Origin: a virus
Taxonomy: Duplodnaviria; Heunggongvirae; Uroviricota; Caudoviricetes
IMG/VR virus record: IMGVR_UViG_2537561618_000005
Length of the DNA: 13,194 nucleotides
Reading direction: 5' to 3' (one strand)
In this document: positions 1-13,194 of the stretch, in pieces
How positions within the stretch are numbered: the stretch's first letter is position 1
Layout of the letters: the number at the start of each line of letters is the position of its first letter
The notes under the pieces: generated by a model
What the model saw: the letters and a program-made list of their open reading frames with translations, nothing else
Database searches by the model: none
What the model was told of the DNA's origin: nothing
Translations under genes and position numbers: made by a program

Positions 1-357
1 ATGTCATCGTTCAGGCACCACTTCCTCCTAAACCGATCGAACGCGGTTATGCCAGTGCAGGGTTACTTGCACGGATCCTGGTCAGCAAATATATGGAACA
101 TATCCCTTTATATCGCCAGTCAGAAATATACGCGCGACAGGGCGTGGAGCTGAGCCGTAATACCATGGTGCGCTGGGTATCAGAAATGGCAGACAAACTC
201 CGTCCTCTGTATATAGCGCTGAATGACTATGTTCTGGAGGCAGGAAAGGTGCACGCAGATGACACTCCGGTGAAAGTACTGGCCCCGGGGAACGGAAAGA
301 CGAAAACGGGTCGTCTGTGGGTATACGTCAGGGATGATCGTAATGCGGGTTCATCCC
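1..357 (+). mobile_element. Remnant of an IS66-family insertion sequence (internal part of the transposase gene only), cut off by IS2 at 358
   Basis: Frame-3 translation from nt 3 (VIVQAPLPPKPIERGYASAGLLARILVSKYMEHIPLYRQSEIYARQGVELSRNTMVRWV...ADDTPVKVLAPGNGKTKTGRLWVYVRDDRNAG) matches IS66/ISEc8-type transposases as I remember them. No IS66 terminal repeat lies in the window. Confidence 0.7.
3..357 (+). pseudogene. IS66-family transposase (TnpC-like), internal fragment; 5' end outside window, 3' end replaced by IS2
   Basis: Open frame with no plausible start in the window. The reading frame runs straight into the IS2 left end and stops inside IS2 at 405-407. Confidence 0.75.
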
Positions 358-448
358 TAGACTGGCCCCCTGAATCTCCAGACAACCAGTATCACTTATT
401 TAAGTGATAGTCTTAATACTAGTTTTTAGACTAGTCATTGGAGAACAG

Positions 449-814
449 ATGATTGATGTCTTAGGGCCGGAGAAACGCAGACGGCGTACCACACAGGAAA
501 AGATCGCAATTGTTCAGCAGAGCTTTGAACCGGGGATGACGGTCTCCCTCGTTGCCCGGCAACATGGTGTAGCAGCCAGCCAGTTATTTCTCTGGCGTAA
601 GCAATACCAGGAAGGAAGTCTTACTGCTGTGGCCGCCGGAGAACAGGTTGTTCCTGCCTCTGAACTTGCTGCCGCCATGAAGCAGATTAAAGAACTCCAG
701 CGCCTGCTCGGCAAGAAAACGATGGAAAATGAACTCCTCAAAGAAGCCGTTGAATATGGACGGGCAAAAAAGTGGATAGCGCACGCGCCCTTATTGCCCG
801 GGGATGGGGAGTAA
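449..814 (+). CDS. insC: IS2 OrfA (InsC) transposase regulatory/HTH protein
   Basis: ATG at 449 preceded by GGAGAA. Translation [56 protein letters not shown]...[18 protein letters not shown] matches IS2 InsC from memory. The ORF-track start at 404 lies inside the IS terminal repeat and is unlikely. Confidence 0.9.
766..772 (+). promoter_or_regulatory. A AAA AAG programmed -1 ribosomal frameshift heptamer of IS2 (insC to insD)
   Basis: A6G run at 766-772 where the insC frame (frame 2) overlaps the insD frame (frame 1). IS3-family elements make the OrfAB transposase by -1 frameshifting at such motifs. Confidence 0.6.
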
Positions 815-1677
815 GCTTAGTCAGCCGTTGTCTCCGGGTGTCGCGTGCGCAGTTGCACGTCATTCTCAGACGAACCGATGACTGGATGGATGGCCGCCGC
901 AGTCGTCACACTGATGATACGGATGTGCTTCTCCGTATACACCATGTTATCGGAGAGCTGCCCACGTATGGTTATCGTCGGGTATGGGCGCTGCTTCGCA
1001 GACAGGCAGAACTTGATGGTATGCCTGCGATCAATGCCAAACGTGTTTACCGGCTCATGCGCCAGAATGCGCTGTTGCTTGAGCGAAAACCTGCTGTACC
1101 GCCATCGAAACGGGCACATACAGGCAGAGTGGCCGTGAAAGAAAGCAATCAGCGATGGTGCTCTGACGGGTTCGAGTTCTGCTGTGATAACGGAGAGAGA
1201 CTGCGTGTCACGTTCGCGCTGGACTGCTGTGATCGTGAGGCACTGCACTGGGCGGTGACTACCGGCGGCTTCAACAGTGAAACAGTACAGGATGTCATGC
1301 TGGGAGCGGTGGAACGCCGCTTCGGCAACGATCTTCCGTCGTCTCCAGTGGAGTAGCTGACGGATAATGGTTCATGCTACCGGGCTAATGAAACACGCCA
1401 GTTCGCCCGGATGTTGGGACTTGAACCGAAGAACACGGCGGTGCGGAGTCCGGAGAGTAACGGAATAGCAGAGAGCTTCGTGAAAACGATAAAGCGTGAC
1501 TACATCAGTATCATGCCCAAACCAGACGGGTTAACGGCAGCAAAGAACCTTGCAGAGGCGTTCGAGCATTATAACGAATGGCATCCGCATAGTGCGCTGG
1601 GTTATCGCTCGCCACGGGAATATCTGCGGCAGCGGGCTTGTAATGGGTTAAGTGATAACAGATGTCTGGAAATATAG
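772..1677 (+). pseudogene. insD: IS2 OrfB (InsD) transposase catalytic domain, interrupted by in-frame TAG at 1354-1356
   Basis: Frame 1 is InsD-like throughout ([20 protein letters not shown]...SSPVE then [41 protein letters not shown]...NRCLEI). Codon 1354-1356 is TAG where IS2 InsD has W (VEWLTDNG) in my memory, immediately before the DNG catalytic region. The track splits it into ORFs 772-1356 and 1411-1677 in the same frame. Confidence 0.8.
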
Positions 1678-1733
1678 GGGCAAATCCAGTATAAGCCATT
1701 ATCAAACCCACCCGTAGATAGGCTTTGTAATGG

Positions 1734-2021
1734 CTACTTCTTCAGAAATGATTCGATGAATTCACGTCGAGGATGACGATAGTTCAGAATATCTTCTGGC
1801 ATCCTCATAAAGCGGTTGTTGCCGTCTTTGGCAGTAACAAAACAGCTGTGAACTCCGCAGACATCCGTTTTGATCGTGTCGCTATACTCAAAAAGCAACT
1901 GAGCCATCTTCTCTTGCCATTCTGGAGGCATAGCCTCCATGAATACTCGCGGCATCACGCAGAACGACGTATGCGTAAGACCAAACCACAGTTGCAGGTC
2001 TTTACGATATTCTTCATCCAT
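1734..2021 (-). CDS. Hypothetical 95-aa protein ([95 protein letters not shown]), family not recognised
   Basis: ATG (reverse complement of 2019-2021) preceded by AAGGT with 6-nt spacing. The ORF-track ORF 1734-2117 continues upstream only because the frame stays open into the IS911 left end. The stop is 45 bp from the IS2 right end. I could not assign a family from memory. Confidence 0.4.
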
Positions 2022-2085
2022 CGTCTTTACCTTTGTTGCAATGATGAAGTGGCACACTGAATTTGGCCACCTGAACAGAGGTGAT

Positions 2086-3284
<1,199 letters not shown>

Positions 3285-3292
3285 CCACTTCA

Positions 3293-4447
3293 TGGATGCC
3301 TGTTGAGCAGGAAGCGCCAACCCAGACTGGCTGGGATTTAACTGGCAACGCAACCGGGATTCTGGAACTCTCCGTGAAGTGCAACATGGGCGATCCGGAT
3401 AACGATTTCTTCGAGCTTCGTGCAGATGACCTGCGTGATGAGCGTTCTTACCGTCGCCGCATCCAGGCATCCGCCAAAAAACTGGCGAATAACATTGAGT
3501 CAGCGATTGCCAAACAGGCAACTGAAATGGGCTCGCTTGTTGTTCACGATACCCGCGCAATTGGTCCATCGACTGGCCTGCCTGGCTGGGATTTTGTGTC
3601 TGATGCAGAGCGACTGATGTTCTCCCGTGAGCTAAACCGCGACATGGGCATCAGTTACTTCCTGAACCCTGACGATTACCGCAAAGCAGGCCGCAACCTG
3701 GTAGATGGTGACATCTTCGGGCGCGTTCCTGAAGAAGCATATCGAAACGGTACTATTCAGCGTCAGATTGCTGGCTTTGATGAAATTCTTCGCTCACCGA
3801 AACTTCCGGCAGTTACCAAGTCAACCGCGACTGGTGTAACTGTTTCTGGTGCGCAGAAGTTTAAGCCGCAGGCATACACCCTTGATACCGATGGTAACAA
3901 AGAGAACGTCGACAACCGTGTTGCAACGGTGACCGTATCCTCCACCACCGGATTTAAGCGCGGCGACAAAATCAGCTTCATTGGTGTGAAGTTCCTGTCT
4001 CAGATGGCGAAGAATGTGCTGACTGATGACGCGACTTTCTCAATCACCCGTGTGATCGATGGTACTCACATCGAAATCACGCCGAAGCCGATTGCGCTGG
4101 ATGACGCGTCACTGACAAAAGAAGAGAAGGCTTACGCTAACGTAAACACCTCTCTTGCTGATACCACTCCGGTAAACGTTCTGAACGTGGCAACAACCAC
4201 CGCTAACGTGTTCTGGGCTGATGACTCAATCCGCCTGCTGTCTCAGCCGATCCCGGTAACCCATGAACTGTTTGCTGGCATGAAAACGTCTTCCTTCAGC
4301 ATTCCAGGTATTGGTGTTAACGGCATCTTCGCAACGCAGGGTGATATCAACACTCTGTCTGGTAAGTGCCGTATTGCTGTGTGGTATTCAGCATGTGCTG
4401 TACGACCAGAGGCAATTGGTGTTGGTCTGCCTAACCAGACCGCGTGA
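3293..4447 (+). pseudogene. P22-type major capsid (coat) protein gene, 5'-truncated by the IS911 right end (about 45 N-terminal codons missing)
   Basis: Translation [16 protein letters not shown]...[33 protein letters not shown]...[39 protein letters not shown]...[34 protein letters not shown]...[14 protein letters not shown] is collinear with P22 gp5 coat as I remember it. The homology starts exactly at the IS911 boundary, with no native start codon or RBS. Confidence 0.9.
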
Positions 4448-4455
4448 TAACCAGA

Positions 4456-4479
4456 GGGAGCTTCGGCTCCCGTTTTTAT
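4456..4479 (+). terminator. Intrinsic (rho-independent) terminator-like hairpin downstream of the coat gene
   Basis: GGGAGC-TTCG-GCTCCC perfect 6-bp GC-rich stem with tetraloop, followed by GTTTTTAT, 9 nt after the coat stop (TGA 4445-4447). Confidence 0.6.
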
Positions 4480-4491
4480 CTGGAGACAAGC

Positions 4492-4716
4492 ATGACACAC
4501 ATGATCTTTCGTCATGGCGACATGAAGAAGTGGAAAGGCGTTGGCTACGACTTTGAAATCGTGAAAGCCGAAGAGCTTCAGGAATATCTGGATGCTGGCT
4601 GGTTTTCACATCCTGATGACCTTTTGAAGGATGTTGCAGAGCCAGAAGAAAAACAGTGTAAAAAGCCTGGTCGAAAACCTAAGGCGGCAGCAGATGAACC
4701 TGACAACGAAGGGTGA
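4492..4716 (+). CDS. Small hypothetical protein (74 aa) between coat and adaptor genes
   Basis: ATG at 4492 preceded by GGAGA. Translation [74 protein letters not shown]. Its 3' end overlaps the next gene start by 23 nt. Function unknown. Confidence 0.5.
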
Positions 4717-5194
4717 TTTAGTTCTTGCGGCATTACGTAAGCTCGGTGTTGCATCAAATGCCACGTTAACCGATGTCGAACCGCAGTCTATGGAAGACGG
4801 CGTCAACGACCTTGAAATGATGATGGCTGAATGGCTTGGCGGTGATGCGTCACCTGGTATCAACGTTGGCTACATTTTTGCTGATGCAGATGTTGCTCCG
4901 GATCCGGGCGATGAGCACGGTTTATCAAATAACGCTATCAATGCCGTCATTTTCAACCTTGCCTGCCGAATTGCTCCAGATTATGCGCTGGAAGCGTCTG
5001 CAAAACTTATAACCACTGCCAGATACGGGAAAGAGCGACTCGTCAAACTGTCTGCAATGGACAGGGCAAAAGCAGCTAAATGTAAGTCCGGTTATCCAAA
5101 CCGTATGCCTGTTGGTAGTGGTAACCAGTTGGCGAAGTGGAATGGTTGGAATTACTTCCACCGAAAGGAACCTTGCGATAACGGGAGCGAATAA
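4694..5194 (+). CDS. Head-to-tail adaptor protein, P22 gp4-like (166 aa)
   Basis: [47 protein letters not shown]...[29 protein letters not shown]...[11 protein letters not shown] resembles P22 gp4 from memory, with the same length and position directly upstream of the gp10 homolog. The stop TAA overlaps the next ATG (ATAATG). Confidence 0.85.
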
Positions 5195-6612
5195 TGCCTA
5201 TTCAGCAACTTCCGCTTATGAAAGGTGTCGGCAAAGACTTCCGAAACGCCGACTATATCGACTATCTGCCAGTGAATATGCTGGCTACACCCAAAGAAAT
5301 CCTGAACAGCAGCGGATATCTTCGCCCATTCCCGGGCATTGCCAAACGTTCTGACGTGAACGGTGTATCTCGCGGCGTCGAGTACAACATGGCGCAGAAT
5401 GCTGTTTATCGCGTGTGTGGCGGCAAGCTGTACAAAGGAGAAAGTGAAGTCGGTGATGTTGCCGGAAGTGGTCGTGTATCAATGGCGCATGGTCGGACAT
5501 CACAGGCGGTAGGCGTTAATGGTCAACTGGTCGAGTATCGCTATGATGGCACGGTCAAAACCGTCTCAAACTGGCCTACAGACAGTGGATTCACTCAGTA
5601 TGAGTTAGGTTCAGTTCGCGACATTACGCGCTTACGTGGGCGTTATGCGTGGTCAAAAGACGGAACTGATTCATGGTTTATCACTGACCTTGAAGACGAA
5701 TCTCATCCTGACCGTTACAGCGCACAATATCGTGCCGAGTCTCAGCCTGACGGCATCATCGGTATCGGGACATGGCGAGACTTCATCGTCTGCTTTGGTT
5801 CATCGACTATTGAATATTTCTCCCTGACTGGCGCAACCACCGTTGGTGCCGCTTTGTATGTTGCACAACCATCGCTGATGGTGCAGAAAGGCATTGCCGG
5901 AACTTACTGCAAAACGCCATTCGCTGATTCGTATGCGTTTATCAGCAATCCGGCAACGGGTGCGCCGTCTGTGTATATCATCGACTCCGGTCAGGTGTCA
6001 CCAATTGCCAGCGCGAGCATTGAGAAAATCCTCCGCTCCTACACTGCTGATGAACTGGCTGATGGTGTGATGGAATCGCTGCGATTTGATGCTCATGAGT
6101 TGCTGATTATCCACCTTCCGCGTCACGTCCTCGTGTACGACGCATCTTCAAGCGCCAATGGCCCACAATGGTGTGTGCTGAAAACAGGTCTGTATGACGA
6201 TGTGTACCGCGCTATCGACTTCGTTTACGAAGGCAATCAGATAACGTGCGGCGATAAGCTGGAATCTGTTACCGGGAAACTGCAATTCGATATCAGCAGC
6301 CAGTACGACAAGCAACAGGAACACCTGCTGTTTACTCCACTCTTCAAAGCGGATAACGCCAGAGTGTTCGACCTTGAGGTTGAATCGTCAACTGGCGTTG
6401 CGCAGTACGCCGACCGCCTTTTTCTCTCTGCAACCACTGACTGCATCAATTACGGGCGTGAGCAGATGATTGAGCAGAATGAACCGTTCGTTTACGACAA
6501 GCGTGTTTTGTGGAAGCGAGTAGGGCGCATCAGGAAAAATGTCGGCTTCAAATTGCGCGTTATCACGAAGTCACCTGTCACTCTGTCTGGCGCTCAGATA
6601 AGGATTGAGTAA
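5194..6612 (+). CDS. Tail hub / tail accessory protein, P22 gp10-like (472 aa)
   Basis: [48 protein letters not shown]...[18 protein letters not shown]. Length and N-terminus agree with P22 gp10 as I remember it, and the gene is in the gp4-gp10-gp26 order. Confidence 0.88.
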
Positions 6613-7409
6613 TGGCTGATTCGAATCTCAATGTGCCGGTAATCATCCAAGCTACGCGGCTCGATACATCAGTCCTTCCACGCAATATCTTCTCGCAGTC
6701 GTATCTGCTTTACGTTATCGCACAGGGCACTGATGTTGGTAACGTGGCTAACAAAGCCAACGAGGCCGGACAGGGCGCTTATGATGCACAGGTCAGGAAC
6801 GATGAGCAGGATGTGATTCTCGCTGACCATGAGCAGCGAATTTCTGCTGCGGAAGCAACGCTTGTTAATCATGAGGAGCGAATCAGACAGGCAGAATCAA
6901 CTCTTCAGGACCATGAAACACGAATAGCTCAGAATGAAAGCGATATTTCGTCGCTTGACACAAGAGTTCAGTCGCTGGAGTCGCAGGTTTCAGACCATGA
7001 AACGCGCATCGATGCTCTGGAGTATGCAACCACACGCAAGAAGTCAGAGGTTGTTTACTCTGGTGTATCTGTAACCATCCCGACAGCGCCGACCAACCTT
7101 GTTAGCCTGCTGAAAACGCTCACACCGTCATCCGGCTCGTTGGCACCATTCTTCGACACCGTTAACAACAAGATGGTTGTGTTCAACGAGAACAAAACCC
7201 TGCTCTTCAAGTTGTCGATTGTCGGCACGTGGCCCAGCGGAACCGCCAACAGGTCAATGCAGCTAACCTTTTCCGGCTCTGTTCCTGACACACTGGTCAG
7301 CAGTCGTAATGCGGCGACAACAACCGACAACATCCTGTTAGCTACGTTCTTCAGCGTGGATAAAGACGGCTTTCTTGCCACAACCATCAAGATAATCGCG
7401 GAGCAGTGA
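6612..7409 (+). CDS. Tail needle protein, P22 gp26-like N-terminus and coiled-coil core with a divergent C-terminal domain (265 aa)
   Basis: N-terminus [68 protein letters not shown] is near-identical in pattern to P22 gp26. It is followed by DHE.RI heptad-type repeats. The last ~110 aa ([25 protein letters not shown]...TIKIIAEQ) do not resemble the P22 gp26 C-terminus. Confidence 0.85.
6825..7020 (+). repeat. Intragenic periodic repeats (about 42 nt / 14 aa; GACCATGA-R units) encoding the trimeric coiled-coil shaft of the tail needle
   Basis: [14 protein letters not shown] / [14 protein letters not shown] / [14 protein letters not shown] / ... / [19 protein letters not shown] or CATGA-containing units recur at 14- or 28-codon spacing. 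Confidence 0.5.
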
Positions 7410-7864
7410 TGATTACATTCAAACCAACGCGAAACATCGACCTGATAGAAGCAGTCGGAAATCACCCTGACATTATCGCCGGGAGCAACAACGGTGATGG
7501 ATACGACTACAAACCTGAATGCCGTTACTTTGAGGTGAACGTGCACGGTCAGTTTGGCGGCATTGTTTACTATCAGGAGATTCAGCCGCTGACATTAGAT
7601 TGCCACGCCATGTACCTGCCAGAGATTCGCGGCTTCAGCAAGGAAATTGGGCTGGCGTTCTGGCGATACATTCTGACTAACACCACCGTTCAGTGCGTAA
7701 CATCGTTCGCTGCACGCAAATTCCGACACGGTCAGATGTACTGCGCAATGATTGGCCTTAAGCGTGTAGGAACCATCAAGAAATACTTCAAAGGCGTGGA
7801 TGACGTGACTTTTTACAGCGCCACACGCGAAGAACTAATCGACTTCCTGAATCACGGGAGATAG
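7409..7864 (+). CDS. Hypothetical virion-associated protein at the position of P22 gene 14 (151 aa)
   Basis: ATG at 7409 overlaps the gp26-like stop (TGATG). Translation [51 protein letters not shown].... Assignment is by position only; I cannot confirm sequence similarity to P22 gp14 from memory. Confidence 0.55.
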   Translation: MITFKPTRNIDLIEAVGNHPDIIAGSNNGDGYDYKPECRYFEVNVHGQFGGIVYYQEIQPLTLDCHAMYLPEIRGFSKEIGLAFWRYILTNTTVQCVTSFAARKFRHGQMYCAMIGLKRVGTIKKYFKGVDDVTFYSATREELIDFLNHGR

Positions 7865-7866
7865 CC

Positions 7867-8475
7867 ATGTTATATGCATTTAAGCTGGGCAGAAAACTGT
7901 GCGGCGAGGAACCTTATTGCCCTGAAAAAGGCGGGAAAGGTGGCAGTTCTGATAAAAGCGCAAAGTATGCAGCAGAAGCCCAGAAGTATGCTGCAGACCT
8001 GCAAAATCAGCAGTGGCAGACGATCATGAAAAACCTTGCTCCGTTCACGCCTCTTGCGGAGCAGTATGTTAACCAGCTTCAGAACCTTTCCAGTTTAGAA
8101 GGTCAGGGGCAGGCACTTAATCAGTATTACAACTCTAAGCAGTATAAAGACCTTGCAGGGCAGGCGCGTTACCAGAGTCTTGCTGCTGCGGAGGCGACGG
8201 GTGGACTTGGTTCGACAGCCACAAGCAATCAACTGGCTACGATCGCGCCGACACTCGGTCAGTCTTGGTTATCAAATCAGATGAGCAATTACAACAATCT
8301 GGCAAACGTTGGGCTTGGTGCGCTGCAAGGTCAGGCAAACGCCGGGCAGACGTACGCCAACAACATGAGCAGCATTGCACAGCAAAGCGCAGCTCTTGCC
8401 AGCCTTTTGGGAACATCAACGCCTTGGGGCGCTGGTATTGGTGCTGGTATCGGATTGCTTGGCTCGTTGTTTTAA
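7867..8475 (+). CDS. DNA-ejection (E) protein, P22 gp7-like (202 aa)
   Basis: ATG at 7867 preceded by GGGAGA. Gln/Asn/Ala/Gly-rich low-complexity protein with a Gly-rich hydrophobic C-terminus (WGAGIGAGIGLLGSLF). Position and composition are typical of the first P22-type ejection protein. Confidence 0.8.
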   Translation: MLYAFKLGRKLCGEEPYCPEKGGKGGSSDKSAKYAAEAQKYAADLQNQQWQTIMKNLAPFTPLAEQYVNQLQNLSSLEGQGQALNQYYNSKQYKDLAGQARYQSLAAAEATGGLGSTATSNQLATIAPTLGQSWLSNQMSNYNNLANVGLGALQGQANAGQTYANNMSSIAQQSAALASLLGTSTPWGAGIGAGIGLLGSLF

Positions 8476-8484
8476 GGGGTAATC

Positions 8485-9816
8485 ATGGCTACTTGGCAAG
8501 GAACAAACGGCGGATTGTTGGCTGGTATCGGCGGCGTCAACTCAAACGCTCCGAGCGTAAATGACATCGGCAATACGCTTCAGCTTATCAGGCAGAACAA
8601 TGATATTGAGCGTTCAGGCGCTAACAATGTTGGGCTGACTGCTTTGCAAGGTCTTTCAGGTATTGCGGGTGTTTTTCAGCAGGAAAAGCAGGCTCAGCGG
8701 CAGAAAGAATTTCAGCAGGCGTACGCTAATGCTTATGCGTCTGGTGATCGCGGTGCTTTGCGTCAGTTGGCTACTCAATATCCAGACCAGATTGAATCCG
8801 TTCGTAAAGGCATGGGATTCATTGATGAAGAGCAGCGTAATTCTATCGGCACCTTAGCGGCTGGCGCACGCCTTGCGTCATCGTCTCCAGAAGCAATGCA
8901 ATCATGGCTGCAAAACAACGCCGGTGAGTTAGCTCGTGTTGGCGTTAATCCTCATGACGTCGCTCAGATGTACCAACAGAACCCGCGGCAGTTCGGCGAA
9001 TTTGTCGATCACCTGGGGATGAACAGTCTCGGGCCCGAAAAATACTTTGACCTACAGGATAAAATGCAGGGTCGCCAGGTTACCATGCGCGGTCAGGATC
9101 TGGATTCGCAAACCGCCGCTCGGAATCAGGCAATCACAATGCGCGGACAAGATATCCAGGCGAATTTAGGTCAGCAGCGCATTAATCTGGACGCAGAAAC
9201 AAACCGCATTAACAACGAAAATAAGCGCCTTGACCGGATGCTATCAGCAGAAACTAACGACCTGAAGCGCCAGGAAATACAGAGCCGCATAGCAGCCAAC
9301 AACCAGCAGTTGCAGCAGAAGCAGCAAGCGCTAAATGATGGCTACAAAGACGGCATCAACACCCTCACAACCAGCATGTTCACTCTGAACGATATCGTTA
9401 GTTCTCCTTCACTTAAGAGCATTACAGGCTTACGTGGAGTAATCCCCAACGTTCCAGGCTCACAGGCTGCAGACACTCAGGCACGACTTGATACCTTTAA
9501 ATCACAAGCATACCTGACAGCGGTTCAGGCCATGCGAGGCATGGGCGCACTTTCTGATGCCGAGGGCAAAAAGCTCGACCAGGCTGTTGGTTCGCTGCAG
9601 AACTCGCAGAGCGAGGAGTCCTTTCGTCGCAACGCTGGCGTCATCCTGAACACGCTCAACCAGAAGCGTAATGAGGCGGTTGGTAAGTACGTTCAGCAAA
9701 ACGGTATCAAGCGAGTGGAAGCGCCTCAGGCTTCTATAGATTACCTGAAGCAGCACCCCGAGCTGTCAATCGACTTCATTAATCGCTACGGATATCTTCC
9801 ATCTTTGGGGCAGTAA
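8485..9816 (+). CDS. DNA-ejection (E) protein, P22 gp20-like (443 aa)
   Basis: ATG at 8485 preceded by AAGGGG. Translation MATWQGTNGGLLAGIGGVNSNAPS.... Gln-rich with internal TMRGQD repeats. Position and size match the second ejection protein. Confidence 0.8.
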   Translation: MATWQGTNGGLLAGIGGVNSNAPSVNDIGNTLQLIRQNNDIERSGANNVGLTALQGLSGIAGVFQQEKQAQRQKEFQQAYANAYASGDRGALRQLATQYPDQIESVRKGMGFIDEEQRNSIGTLAAGARLASSSPEAMQSWLQNNAGELARVGVNPHDVAQMYQQNPRQFGEFVDHLGMNSLGPEKYFDLQDKMQGRQVTMRGQDLDSQTAARNQAITMRGQDIQANLGQQRINLDAETNRINNENKRLDRMLSAETNDLKRQEIQSRIAANNQQLQQKQQALNDGYKDGINTLTTSMFTLNDIVSSPSLKSITGLRGVIPNVPGSQAADTQARLDTFKSQAYLTAVQAMRGMGALSDAEGKKLDQAVGSLQNSQSEESFRRNAGVILNTLNQKRNEAVGKYVQQNGIKRVEAPQASIDYLKQHPELSIDFINRYGYLPSLGQ

Positions 9817-11547
9817 ATGGCTAATTACCGTGATTTGTTAGAGCAGGCTGGCGCACGTTACGGTGTGCCAGAAGGGTTGATGACTGCACTGGGTGCCAAG
9901 GAGTCTTCTTACAACCCTGCCGCAGTAAGCTCCGCCGGGGCTGTAGGATTGACTCAGGTCATGCCTGGGACATGGCGTGATATGGGTTATACCGATGAGC
10001 AAATGCAAAACCCCGAATATCAGGCTGACGCTGGCGCGCGCTATCTGGCAAAGATGTACCAGCAGTTTGGTAACTGGCGTGACGCTCTTCAGGCTTATCA
10101 CGACGGTCCCGGCAACGTTATGAAGGCAAAGCGTGGTGAATATACGCCAGGACCTGAAGGCCGCGGTTACGTTGATGATCGCTTTGCTCAATGGGCTGGT
10201 GACCCGGTGACAGACTCAACAGTCGAACAGCGCGCCACCTCTGCAAAGGTACATCCTCAGCAAGACCCTAACAACCCGTTTGCACAACTGGAAGTACAGT
10301 CATCCGAACAAGTATCGGCATCAGGTGTGCAGTCAGACCCAAATAATCCATTTGCTCAGATTGAGCAGCAGGCAGCCAGTCAGCAGCCACCTCAACCCGT
10401 AAGTTCTGTCGCACCGAAACCTGTTCAGCAACAAACAGTTAATCAGGCCAATAATGCACCAACACGGGAAGAACCATCATTGATGCAACAAGCTGGCGAT
10501 TGGCTCACTGGTGGTCAAAGTGCAGGGCAAATTGCAGAACAGGCTGGTCGTGGTCTGGTAAACATACCATTTGACGTATTGCAGGGTGGCGCAAGTCTGA
10601 TTAATGCAATCAGTCAGGGGCTTGGGGGGCCAAAAGTATTGGATGATGTTTATCGTCCAGTAGACAGACCGACAGACCCCTACGCGCAAGCTGGAGAGTC
10701 AATAGGCGGTTATCTTGTTCCTGGAGCAGGTGTAGCTGGAAACATGGTCATTGGTTCTCTCGCTGACGCGGCGAATCAACGGGGTGATTTTGCCGAAAAT
10801 GCCGCTATTAATGCCGGACTTAGCATTGCTACGCATGGCCTGATAAATGGCGTTACCCGTGGTGTTCGTGGTGCATCAAATATAATTAGTGGCAATAAAA
10901 CATCTGCACAGAGAGCGACCACTGCGCCAACAGAAACATCACCATTCTCCGGTGATGCCGCTGCAGCAACAAATCCTGCGGTTCATGCCGCAGAGGCAAG
11001 AGTAGCACAAGGTGTACCAATGACGCCTGCGACGAAGAACCCAGAGGAAGTCGTTCGCACAGTAGCAGCACAAAAAAGGCCAAATCTCGCTTCATCGCTT
11101 GATGAACTAGATATCAATCCTCAGGCTGAAGTTCTGGAGTCTGCTGAAAGGCTTAATGTTGATTCATTACTCCCTTCACACTTTTCCGGGAACGAGCAAT
11201 ACAAGGCAGTTGAGCAAGCAATCAAGTCCCGTGCGGGTTCTGCTCTACAGGTGCAGGAAAATGAAGCAATCAGGCAGCTAGCACAGGGCGCGGGTGAGAT
11301 AATTGATCGCGTTTCCGGTGCAAAAGATGCTCTTGGTATGAGCGACAAGTTTATTGATACGGTCAATGGAAGAATGTCTGCGCTGATGAAACGAAGCGAC
11401 CAGCTTTATCGCAATGTTGAAAAGGCGATGCCTGCAGGTGCAAAAATTGATGCGCCATCAACAAGGTCAATGCTCAAACAGGTGGCAGAAGATCTTGGCG
11501 GGATGAAAAACCTTGACCCTATTGAAAAGAGAGTTGAGGTAGCCTGA
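9817..11547 (+). CDS. DNA-ejection / internal virion protein, P22 gp16-position, with N-terminal lytic transglycosylase (SLT)-like domain (576 aa)
   Basis: ATG at 9817 directly after the gp20-like stop (TAAATG). The N-terminal ~110 aa carry family-1 lytic transglycosylase motifs ([28 protein letters not shown], then AYHDGPGN). Two DPNNPFAQ peptide repeats occur mid-protein. Confidence 0.8.
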
Positions 11548-11618: not shown

Positions 11619-11672
11619 TGAACCGCCCCGGGAATCCTGGAGACTAAACTTCCTGAGAAAGAGGTAAACAGG

Positions 11673-11995
11673 ATGACTAAAAATACTCGTTTTTCCCCCG
11701 AAGTCCGTCAACGGGCAGTCCGTATGGTTCTGGAAAGTCAGGGCGAATATGACTCACAATGGGCGACAATTTGTTCCATTGCCCCAAAGATTGGCTGTAC
11801 GCCGGAGACTCTGCGTGTCTGGGTTCGCCAGCATGAGCGGGATACCGGGGGCGGTGATGGAGGGCTCACCACCGCTGAACGTCAGCGTCTGAAAGAGCTG
11901 GAGCGTGAAAATCGTGAACTGCGCCGCAGTAACGATATCCTTCGCCAGGCTTCCGCTTATTTTGCGAAGGCGGAGTTCGACCGCCTCTGGAAAAA

Positions 11996-11999
<4 letters not shown>
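11673..11999 (+). CDS. IS629-like OrfA (HTH / leucine-zipper transposase N-terminal protein)
   Basis: [108 protein letters not shown] matches IS629/IS1203 OrfA from memory. Confidence 0.9.
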
Positions 12000-12882
<883 letters not shown>

Positions 12883-12924
12883 GTTCACAGATAAAACACT
12901 CTCCAGGAAACCCGGGGCGGTTCA

Positions 12925-13194
12925 GTTGTCGAACCAGTAGTCGAGACACTGGGCGACCGTCATGGAGTTCTCCACCTTCTCTTCAAAATAAGTGCGTGGA
13001 TCCGTTCCTGAGAAATAGAGCTTTCGCAAGTCAGCAGTGATCTGTCTGGCATCCTTCAAAGACAGGGATGGGTATCGACCAAGCCCAAGTCGATTAGGCT
13101 TGCCATGCCAGCGATAGCGGTACTGGAACTGGATGACCCCCTTCGGTGAAATTCGTACGCTGAGGCCATCAGCATCAGCCACTTCTTGTGGGCC
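12925..13194 (-). pseudogene. Tyrosine recombinase (P4-type phage integrase) N-terminal arm-binding domain fragment; 5' end beyond window, 3' end truncated at the IS629-like junction
   Basis: Minus-strand translation ...GPQEVADADGLSVRISPKGVIQFQYRYRWHGKPNRLGLGRYPSLSLKDARQITADLRKLYFSGTDPRTYFEEK... fits the integrase N-terminal pattern (GL.V.V.PKG.K.F.YRYR..GK..R..LG.YP..SL..AR). The frame is open to the window edge. The terminating TGA is supplied by the IS terminus (reverse complement of 12922-12924). Confidence 0.7.

Follow-up and report, generated by a model that had tools for sequence, protein, structure and literature searches.

An insertion-sequence-bounded block of P22-like virion genes in Shigella flexneri is very probably a decaying prophage remnant

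The virion genes carried by IMG/VR virus record IMGVR_UViG_2537561618_000005, a stretch of 13,194 nucleotides (the window), are very probably a remnant, without function and decaying neutrally, of a mosaic temperate phage of the P22-like (Lederbergvirus) group in the chromosome of Shigella flexneri. The module lies between insertion sequences (IS), for the expansion of which the Shigella genome is known. It cannot build or arm a virion, and there is no sign that it is of any use to the cell. An earlier note, made from the letters of the window, had described it as a cryptic prophage remnant unable to form virions, and this description holds: genes are absent, and IS elements have cut short both the coat gene and the gp16-type gene.

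When the whole window was compared with phage genomes by megablast, the matches were confined to positions 3293-11534, where they were collinear with P22-like (Lederbergvirus) genomes (E=0). The best match, Escherichia phage APC_JM3.2, extends over all of 3293-11534 at about 97% identity and covers 58% of the window, and partial BLAST matches within the same interval were obtained with Dewey, IME10, Sf101, Sf6, HK620 and CUS-3. The DNA identity of the module to APC_JM3.2, Sf101, IME10 and Sf6 is 94-98%, among which APC_JM3.2, Sf101 and Sf6 are classified members of Lederbergvirus. The genes follow one another in the order coat, small open reading frame (ORF), gp4, gp10, needle, gp14, gp7, gp20 and a fusion of a lytic transglycosylase (SLT) domain with gp16 (SLT-gp16), which is the order of the annotated late regions of APC_JM3.2, Sf101 and Sf6; the annotation of Sf6, in turn, equates its late genes to P22 genes 5, 4, 10, 26, 14, 7, 20 and 16. 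The Pfam profiles PF11651, PF11650, PF11134, PF16532, PF11039, PF25688, PF16928 and PF01464 were found in the module. It therefore holds homologues of gp5, gp4, gp10, gp26, gp14, gp7, gp20 and gp16, those of the coat and gp16-type genes being only partial, and is collinear with the P22/Sf6 late operon. The earlier note had read a P22 late-operon order with overlapping or abutting stop and start codons; the order of the Pfam domains and the comparison with the three annotated phages bear out the former, and the ORF positions the latter. The BLAST check that it proposed against Sf6, HK620, CUS-3 and other phages likewise returned collinear similarity. As judged from these alignments, the synteny with the P22-like late region is real and far beyond chance.

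Both ends of the module are formed by IS elements, as the earlier note had maintained. They are IS911 on the left and IS600, itself split by IS629, on the right. At the left junction the IS911 end, GTTGACCACTTCA (right inverted repeat, IRR), is joined directly to TGGATGCC, the coat gene from nucleotide (nt) 142; the match begins 141 nt into the APC_JM3.2 coat gene. At the right junction, APC_JM3.2, Sf101 and E. coli F1005, in which the gene is intact, have AAGAGAGT followed by CTTTCGGG, whereas in the window AAGAGAGT is followed by TGAGGTAGCC, and phage homology stops at 11534. The interval previously assigned to the module, 3293-11547, was thus exact at its start but too long at its end, where the last 13 nt are derived from IS600.

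The state of the individual genes was determined by calling lesions against live phages and against L009, the most complete Shigella copy among the related loci (designated here by L numbers). The residual coat ORF begins with an ATG at 3296 and encodes 383 amino acids (aa). SLT-gp16 retains 573 native codons of 911, followed by three IS600 codons and a stop; the last 338 codons are lost, and the SLT domain (residues 7-110) is still present. Between these truncations, the alignment of the module with L009 contains five single-nucleotide polymorphisms (SNPs) and three in-frame deletions of 6, 51 and 84 bp. The 51-bp deletion, near 7375 and flanked by CT(T)GCCACAA repeats, lies inside the knob of the tail needle and shortens the protein from 282 to 265 aa; alignment to PDB 3RWN, the structure of the knob domain, places the loss of 17 residues at about 257-273 in Sf6 numbering. 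The 84-bp deletion, near 8393 and between TCTTGCC repeats, shortens gp7 from 230 to 202 aa and takes 28 residues from its Gly/Ala-rich C-terminal part; a PDB search with gp7 gave zero matches. In clusters at 90% identity, all other listed needle members have 282 aa and all other listed gp7 members 229-231 aa, and the short needle and gp7 alleles are named Shigella flexneri in their source records. Because every other listed member is full length and the short ones come from S. flexneri, these alleles are derived lesions rather than natural phage variants. The 6-bp deletion removes one Glu-Pro repeat unit from the small ORF relative to L009. This ORF, compared at L001 7200-7466 and L009 4535-4765, matches no known family, and its length varies with Glu-Pro copy number (74 aa in the window, 76 aa in L009 and 88 aa in APC_JM3.2); the polymorphism came from alignment, a tandem-repeat scan of the module having returned short repeats only and nothing relevant.

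Only gp4, gp10, gp14 and gp20 are full length, gp10 being 98-99% identical in aa sequence to its counterparts in four phages. The view that all post-coat ORFs are intact does not survive this comparison: all are open, but SLT-gp16 is truncated, the needle lacks 17 aa and gp7 lacks 28 aa, so that three of the eight are damaged. The needle, gp7, coat and transglycosylase ORFs accordingly merit annotation as pseudogenes although they are open. Positions of all features are collected in Table 1.

Table 1. Features of the 13,194-nt window, in order of position
Feature	Coordinates	Strand	Evidence and remarks
IS66-family transposase gene fragment, broken by IS2	1..357	+	NCBIfam NF033517 transpos_IS66, profile 102-179
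IS2, 1331 bp	358..1688	+	NCBIfam IS2 TnpA/TnpB; RefSeq annotation of matches; 99.5% identity to L006 3726-5056
Chromosomal segment (355 bp)	1689..2043	-	carries 95-aa ORF 1734-2021, minus strand
IS911 (IS3 family)	2044..3293	+	99.0% identity to annotated IS911; ends read directly
Coat gene, 5'-truncated	3293..4447	+	PF11651 from profile position 47; codons 1-47 of 431 lost
GC-rich hairpin and T-run	4456..4471	+	terminator scan; just past coat stop, position of annotated Sf6 'coat' terminator
Small ORF, 74 aa, Glu-Pro repeat	4492..4716	+	without Pfam family
gp4 homologue (tail accessory factor), 166 aa, full length	4694..5194	+	PF11650 P22_Tail-4; 99.4% aa identity to APC_JM3.2
gp10 homologue (tail hub), 472 aa, full length	5194..6612	+	PF11134 Phage_stabilise, 1-469/469
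Tail needle (gp26 homologue), Sf6-type knob, 265 aa	6612..7409	+	PF16532, 1-152/175
gp14-position gene (DUF2824), 151 aa, full length	7409..7864	+	PF11039; 99.3% aa identity to APC_JM3.2
gp7 ejection protein homologue, 202 aa	7867..8475	+	PF25688 P22_gp7, 1-179/230
gp20 ejection protein homologue, 443 aa, full length	8485..9816	+	PF16928 Inj_translocase; 99.8% aa identity to APC_JM3.2
SLT-gp16 fusion gene, 3'-truncated, 576 aa	9817..11547	+	PF01464; PF26808 Phage_P22_gp16 in precomputed hits
IS600, left 85 bp, right boundary of phage DNA	11535..11619	+	100% identity to annotated IS600
IS629/IS1203-type element, inserted in IS600	11620..12924	+	RefSeq annotation of matches, NCBIfam, ends read directly
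Sf101-type tyrosine integrase N-terminal fragment (nt 52-322)	12925..13194	-	runs off window; 99.6% identity to Sf101 int, 99.3% to APC_JM3.2

We found no terminase, portal, scaffold or tailspike gene in the 13,194-nt window, which agrees with what had been noticed before, and the flanks of the module are IS elements. The window does not hold a complete, particle-forming P22-like prophage: besides the absent packaging, portal, scaffold and tailspike genes, the coat gene is short of 47 codons and the gp16-type gene of 338. Nor are the needle and ejection proteins full length, the losses falling in the needle knob and in gp7. A tRNA scan of the window returned zero genes, so that a tRNA at an attachment site is absent from it.

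The lesions are widely shared. The exact 576-aa truncated SLT-gp16, with its IS600-derived tail, is present in 573 index blocks of public assemblies, on 376 contigs; the contig counts for the other exact lesions are 343 (265-aa needle), 358 (202-aa gp7) and 161 (383-aa coat fragment). The NCBI organism name for the exact truncated proteins is S. flexneri, and no complete E. coli genome covered at least 80% of the window. All 16 distinct related loci that we checked share the IS600 junction in SLT-gp16, and those fetched have the IS600/IS629 right end in common. Their left boundaries vary in position, and in all the related loci fetched except L009, L011 and L012 the boundary is an IS911 end; in those three the portal gene is complete, the terminase gene runs off the end of the locus, and the boundary lies beyond it. 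The IS911 boundary falls within the portal gene in L003 and L020, at coat nt 142 in L007, L010, L013, L015 and the window, at window position 6595, just upstream of the needle gene, in L004, L006 and L008, at 7009, inside the needle gene, in L005, and at 10968 in L026, where 567 bp of the last gene remain. Read together, these endpoints form a nested series of erosion on one old lesion. The sequence beyond IS911 is the same in L005, L007 and L010, which fits a stepwise loss of DNA beside one IS911 end.

Positions 358-3292 of the window are 99.97% identical to one locus of CP034060.1, and a single SNP separates positions 3296-11534 from a second locus of that genome, about 64 kb away; the source is thus a close relative of the CP034060.1 strain, rearranged at both IS911 and IS629.

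Two other comparisons concern the same loci. L011 and L012 carry an IS600-truncated gp16-type gene identical to that of the window and near-identical outer parts, together with a gp4-gp7 stretch that differs by 1.5-2.7% (compared over window 4637-8400). This pattern suggests that the dead remnant may have swapped segments with other P22-like phages by recombination. E. coli F1005 (L002 14667-16385, NZ_OY754353.1) was considered as a further bearer of the SLT-gp16 truncation and rejected: RefSeq marks its gene as 'incomplete, missing C-terminus' at the nucleotide of the IS600 junction, and the DNA runs on for 1.1 kb at 99.5% identity to Sf101. The common endpoint appears to be a matter of annotation and not a common truncation.

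Could the missing genes lie elsewhere, so that the prophage is complete but split by an IS-mediated inversion, or simply misassembled? Rearrangement has occurred, as shown by an integrase fragment inverted with respect to the late genes. A tailspike 3' end and oacB lie only a few kb away in related genomes, and the orientation of IS911 at the coat junction of the window is unlike that in four other loci. The junctions themselves recur, however, in independent assemblies, complete genomes included: the one at coat nt 142 in 161 index blocks and the IS600 junction in 573. Moreover, no IS911 flank observed in the related loci bears the 5' end of the coat gene, and the phage would be defective anyway through its gp16, needle and gp7 lesions. 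We consider a split or misassembled complete prophage very unlikely.

The pattern of substitution argues for relaxed constraint within S. flexneri. Against intact phages, the ratio of nonsynonymous to synonymous change (dN/dS) is 0.03-0.2 per gene, with an aggregate pN/pS of 0.067, and these low values are the mark of their past in a phage. Within S. flexneri, 13 copies were compared (the window plus 12 loci), with alignment artefacts at the edges of insertions and deletions removed, and we counted six nonsynonymous changes, one synonymous and one intergenic. Since 76.6% of the sites are nonsynonymous, the probability that at least six of seven coding changes are nonsynonymous is 0.49 at a ratio ω of 1, 0.018 at ω = 0.2 and 0.0012 at ω = 0.1. 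On these counts constraint within S. flexneri is relaxed, the direction being clear despite a small sample of non-independent copies. The dN/dS comparison with relatives that the earlier note had proposed thus yields purifying selection against live phages and a neutral-like pattern among the S. flexneri copies. Its suggestion that the open ORFs reflect recent decay is in keeping with the boundaries nested across strains and with a 6:1 ratio of changes that fits neutrality.

Domestication, in which the hub, needle and ejection genes are selected for a host function such as interference with P22-like phages or an SLT role in the cell wall, we regard as extremely unlikely. It would account for ORFs that are all open, for 51-bp and 84-bp deletions that are in frame, for an SLT domain that is retained, and for the finding that 15 of the 16 distinct loci with the IS600 junction have gp14, gp7, gp20 and the gp16 fragment. 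The retention of the right-hand genes is, however, what one-sided erosion from the left would leave, and deletions do reach into the module: L005 is without the genes up to mid-needle, and L026 keeps only the 567-bp end. The 6:1 changes fit ω = 1 and not ω ≤ 0.1, and the needle deletion falls in the very domain resolved in 3RWN. Promoter-like sites in the module are not in excess (3 found, 7.1 expected). A terminator lies past the coat gene, and read-through from IS911 would probably stop early at the 4456-4471 hairpin, because this hairpin with its T-run follows the coat gene. With truncated genes and with loss of the module in some strains, neither purifying selection after capture nor a complete gene set, as would befit a domesticated element such as a tailocin or gene transfer agent, was found.

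Several points weigh against reading the module as a decaying remnant. Of the source genome only the 13,194-nt window was read, and a split-off copy of the missing genes may, with low probability, lie elsewhere in it. The polymorphism test rests on seven coding changes in 13 non-independent copies. All eight post-coat ORFs are open and all three internal deletions are in frame; the chance probability that both non-repeat deletions are in frame is about 1/9, which is weak evidence at most and to which we give no weight. Finally, the left IS911 of the window is opposite in orientation to that at the same coat nucleotide in the other four loci, for which homologous recombination alone is insufficient.

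The decay of the prophage may be envisaged as a series of steps. A P22-like phage would first have lysogenised an ancestor of S. flexneri, probably at sbcB, the site used by Sf101. IS600 then inserted at codon 573 of SLT-gp16, and IS629 subsequently inserted 85 bp inside IS600; both insertions can be seen in the window, and the former is presumably the oldest lesion because it is common to all 16 loci checked. Downstream DNA, comprising the rest of gp16, the immunity region and the tailspike gene, would have been lost or moved by IS-mediated events. On the left side IS911 came to bound the phage DNA and the adjoining DNA was lost stepwise, as the series of boundaries indicates, presumably by deletion. 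Within the module, slipped mispairing between direct repeats of 7-10 bp, which flank the deletions observed, would have cut 51 bp from the needle gene and 84 bp from gp7. Point changes then built up at the neutral ratio of nonsynonymous to synonymous changes seen in our small sample.

The ancestor of the module resembled Sf101 in part. Sf101 is an oacB-carrying, serotype-converting phage that integrates at sbcB (PMC4159516). The right half of the module (gp14 to SLT-gp16) and the integrase fragment are 98-99.6% identical to Sf101, whereas the coat protein is 98.7% identical to that of APC_JM3.2 and 29% to that of Sf101. Of an Sf101-type prophage we found the integrase, as an IS629-disrupted fragment only, and no Sf101/Sf6-type head genes. 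Because the head genes are of the APC_JM3.2 type and not of the Sf101 type, the ancestor was a different mosaic from Sf101, with APC_JM3.2/P22-type head genes and Sf101-type ejection genes and integrase. The gp16-position gene of this phage lineage, compared at window 9817-11534, L001 12558-15293 and L018 11531-14266, is 911 aa long and joins an N-terminal lytic transglycosylase domain to gp16-like sequence.

The integrase fragment is a further prophage part in the window, outside the coordinates that had been assigned to the module. Of 10 S. flexneri genomes, 8 were reported to have an Sf101-like Int upstream of sbcB, and an IS-disrupted Sf101 prophage was proposed (PMC4159516). The late genes and the int fragment run in opposite directions in the window and in the same direction in Sf101; one inversion between two IS629 copies inside an sbcB prophage would give this arrangement. 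In E. coli O157:H7 strain 9000, a homologous N-terminal integrase fragment adjoins sbcB and is cut by IS1203. A junction of IS629 and integrase common to the window and O157:H7, as one continuous BLAST piece might suggest, was rejected, and the two IS629-family insertions in int are independent because their sites are 26 bp apart. L003 and L013 each carry the 3' end of a tailspike gene together with an acyltransferase gene (oacB), 91% identical to Sf101 15761-17766, at a distance from the module of about 2.6 kb in L003 and 4.7 kb in L013, where they are on the adrA side. According to the literature, oacB is 'upstream of adrA' in most serotypes. We infer that the tailspike-oacB segment was physically linked to the module in the original prophage.

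The DNA to the left of the module belongs to the host chromosome and to further IS elements. The 95-aa ORF at 1734-2021, which had zero Pfam or NCBIfam matches, is exactly conserved in many S. flexneri genomes, always between IS911 and IS2, and in other S. flexneri genomes dnaQ-rnhA and a degraded type VI secretion cluster are its neighbours. Depending on the strain, this IS911 has on its other side the phage module, a gtr serotype-conversion cluster or psiF-phoA, and it appears to be a hub for chromosomal rearrangement. The IS2 copy has an intact orfA and an orfB split into 772-1356 and 1411-1677. In the IS629/IS1203-type element to the right of the module, the frameshift pseudoknot (ALIL) is intact at 11954-12070 (Rfam RF01497, 116 bits) and orfB is split, with ORFs at 11996-12352 and 12214-12882.

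The IS911 end that is joined to a given flank differs between strains. In the window the coat fragment meets IRR; in L007, L010 and L015 the same coat nucleotide meets the left inverted repeat (IRL), with an extra CCA at the junction in L015. As read directly, the flank bearing the 95-aa ORF meets IRL in the window and L025, and IRR in L021, all at one nucleotide (2043); BLAST coordinates suggest the same IRR junction of this flank in L022-L024 and L026-L028. Taken singly, the coat-IS911 junction of the window could reflect either a real transposase-driven event or an assembly problem; the switch is seen in several complete genomes at another junction as well, which speaks for a real phenomenon. 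Homologous recombination between IS911 copies was rejected as its cause on logical grounds, since it leaves each flank with the IS end it had. Repeated transposase-driven IS911 events targeted to the resident IS911 boundary, going beyond homologous recombination, are a tentative and on balance unlikely explanation, put forward on the basis that two unrelated flanks switch IS911 ends and that nested deletion endpoints fall exactly at the IS911 end. To our knowledge, IS-end targeting has not been reported in natural Shigella populations. Targeting next to IS ends is documented for IS911 and IS30 (PMC9333248). Insertion targeted to an inverted repeat, which we also considered for the flip, gives IRL-IRR junctions (PMC9333248) and provides no obvious explanation.

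Taken alone, the module is of little importance, being another case of IS-driven prophage decay in Shigella, and hundreds of S. flexneri assemblies in public databases already contain the block with automatic annotation. What modest value it has lies in the combination of a common IS600 lesion with nested, IS911-bounded left ends, which together offer a time-ordered picture of prophage erosion.

The nearest known systems are intact P22-like phages. APC_JM3.2 (MG197996, Lederbergvirus) agrees in gene order and has the 911-aa form of the SLT-gp16 gene; it differs in being an intact phage of 39.8 kb that possesses terminase, portal, scaffold, tailspike and integrase genes, and in the C-terminal domain of its needle (45% aa identity). 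Sf101 (KJ832078; PMC4159516) shares window 7409-11534 at 98% DNA identity, the int fragment at 99.6%, and a 911-aa 'transglycosylase' gene at the gp16 position. Its coat gene, small ORF and gp4 are, however, unrelated in DNA (23-45% aa identity) and its needle tip is of another type; Sf101 is also intact and inducible, whereas the window is without oacB, tailspike and packaging genes. Sf6 and P22 have the same gene order, and the needle and gp10 proteins are 98.9% and 98.3% identical to those of Sf6, whereas the Sf6 homologues of the coat, gp20 and gp16 are divergent (24-62% aa identity), the Sf6 gp16 homologue having 665 aa and 24% aa identity to the SLT-bearing gene of the window.

Defective relatives have also been described. 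More than 100 E. coli genomes contain a remnant of a few P22-type genes that include an Sf6-type needle gene, as in defective prophage EC4113-1 (Leavitt et al. 2013, PMC3741392); likened by description, these are the same kind of object, in another host lineage and with other boundaries. For S. flexneri, with strain Y394 as an example, serotype-converting prophages are described that IS elements and deletions have reduced to cargo genes and fragments (PMC5596473). Such cryptic prophages are likewise IS-fragmented, and the descriptions centre on the gtr and oacB cargo, with no mention of this virion-gene block in the passages searched. A P22-like remnant is thus already known as a kind, and the module described here adds the structural-gene side of the 'IS-disrupted Sf101-like prophage' put forward by Jakhetia et al. 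(2014) to account for the shift of oacB from sbcB (PMC4159516).

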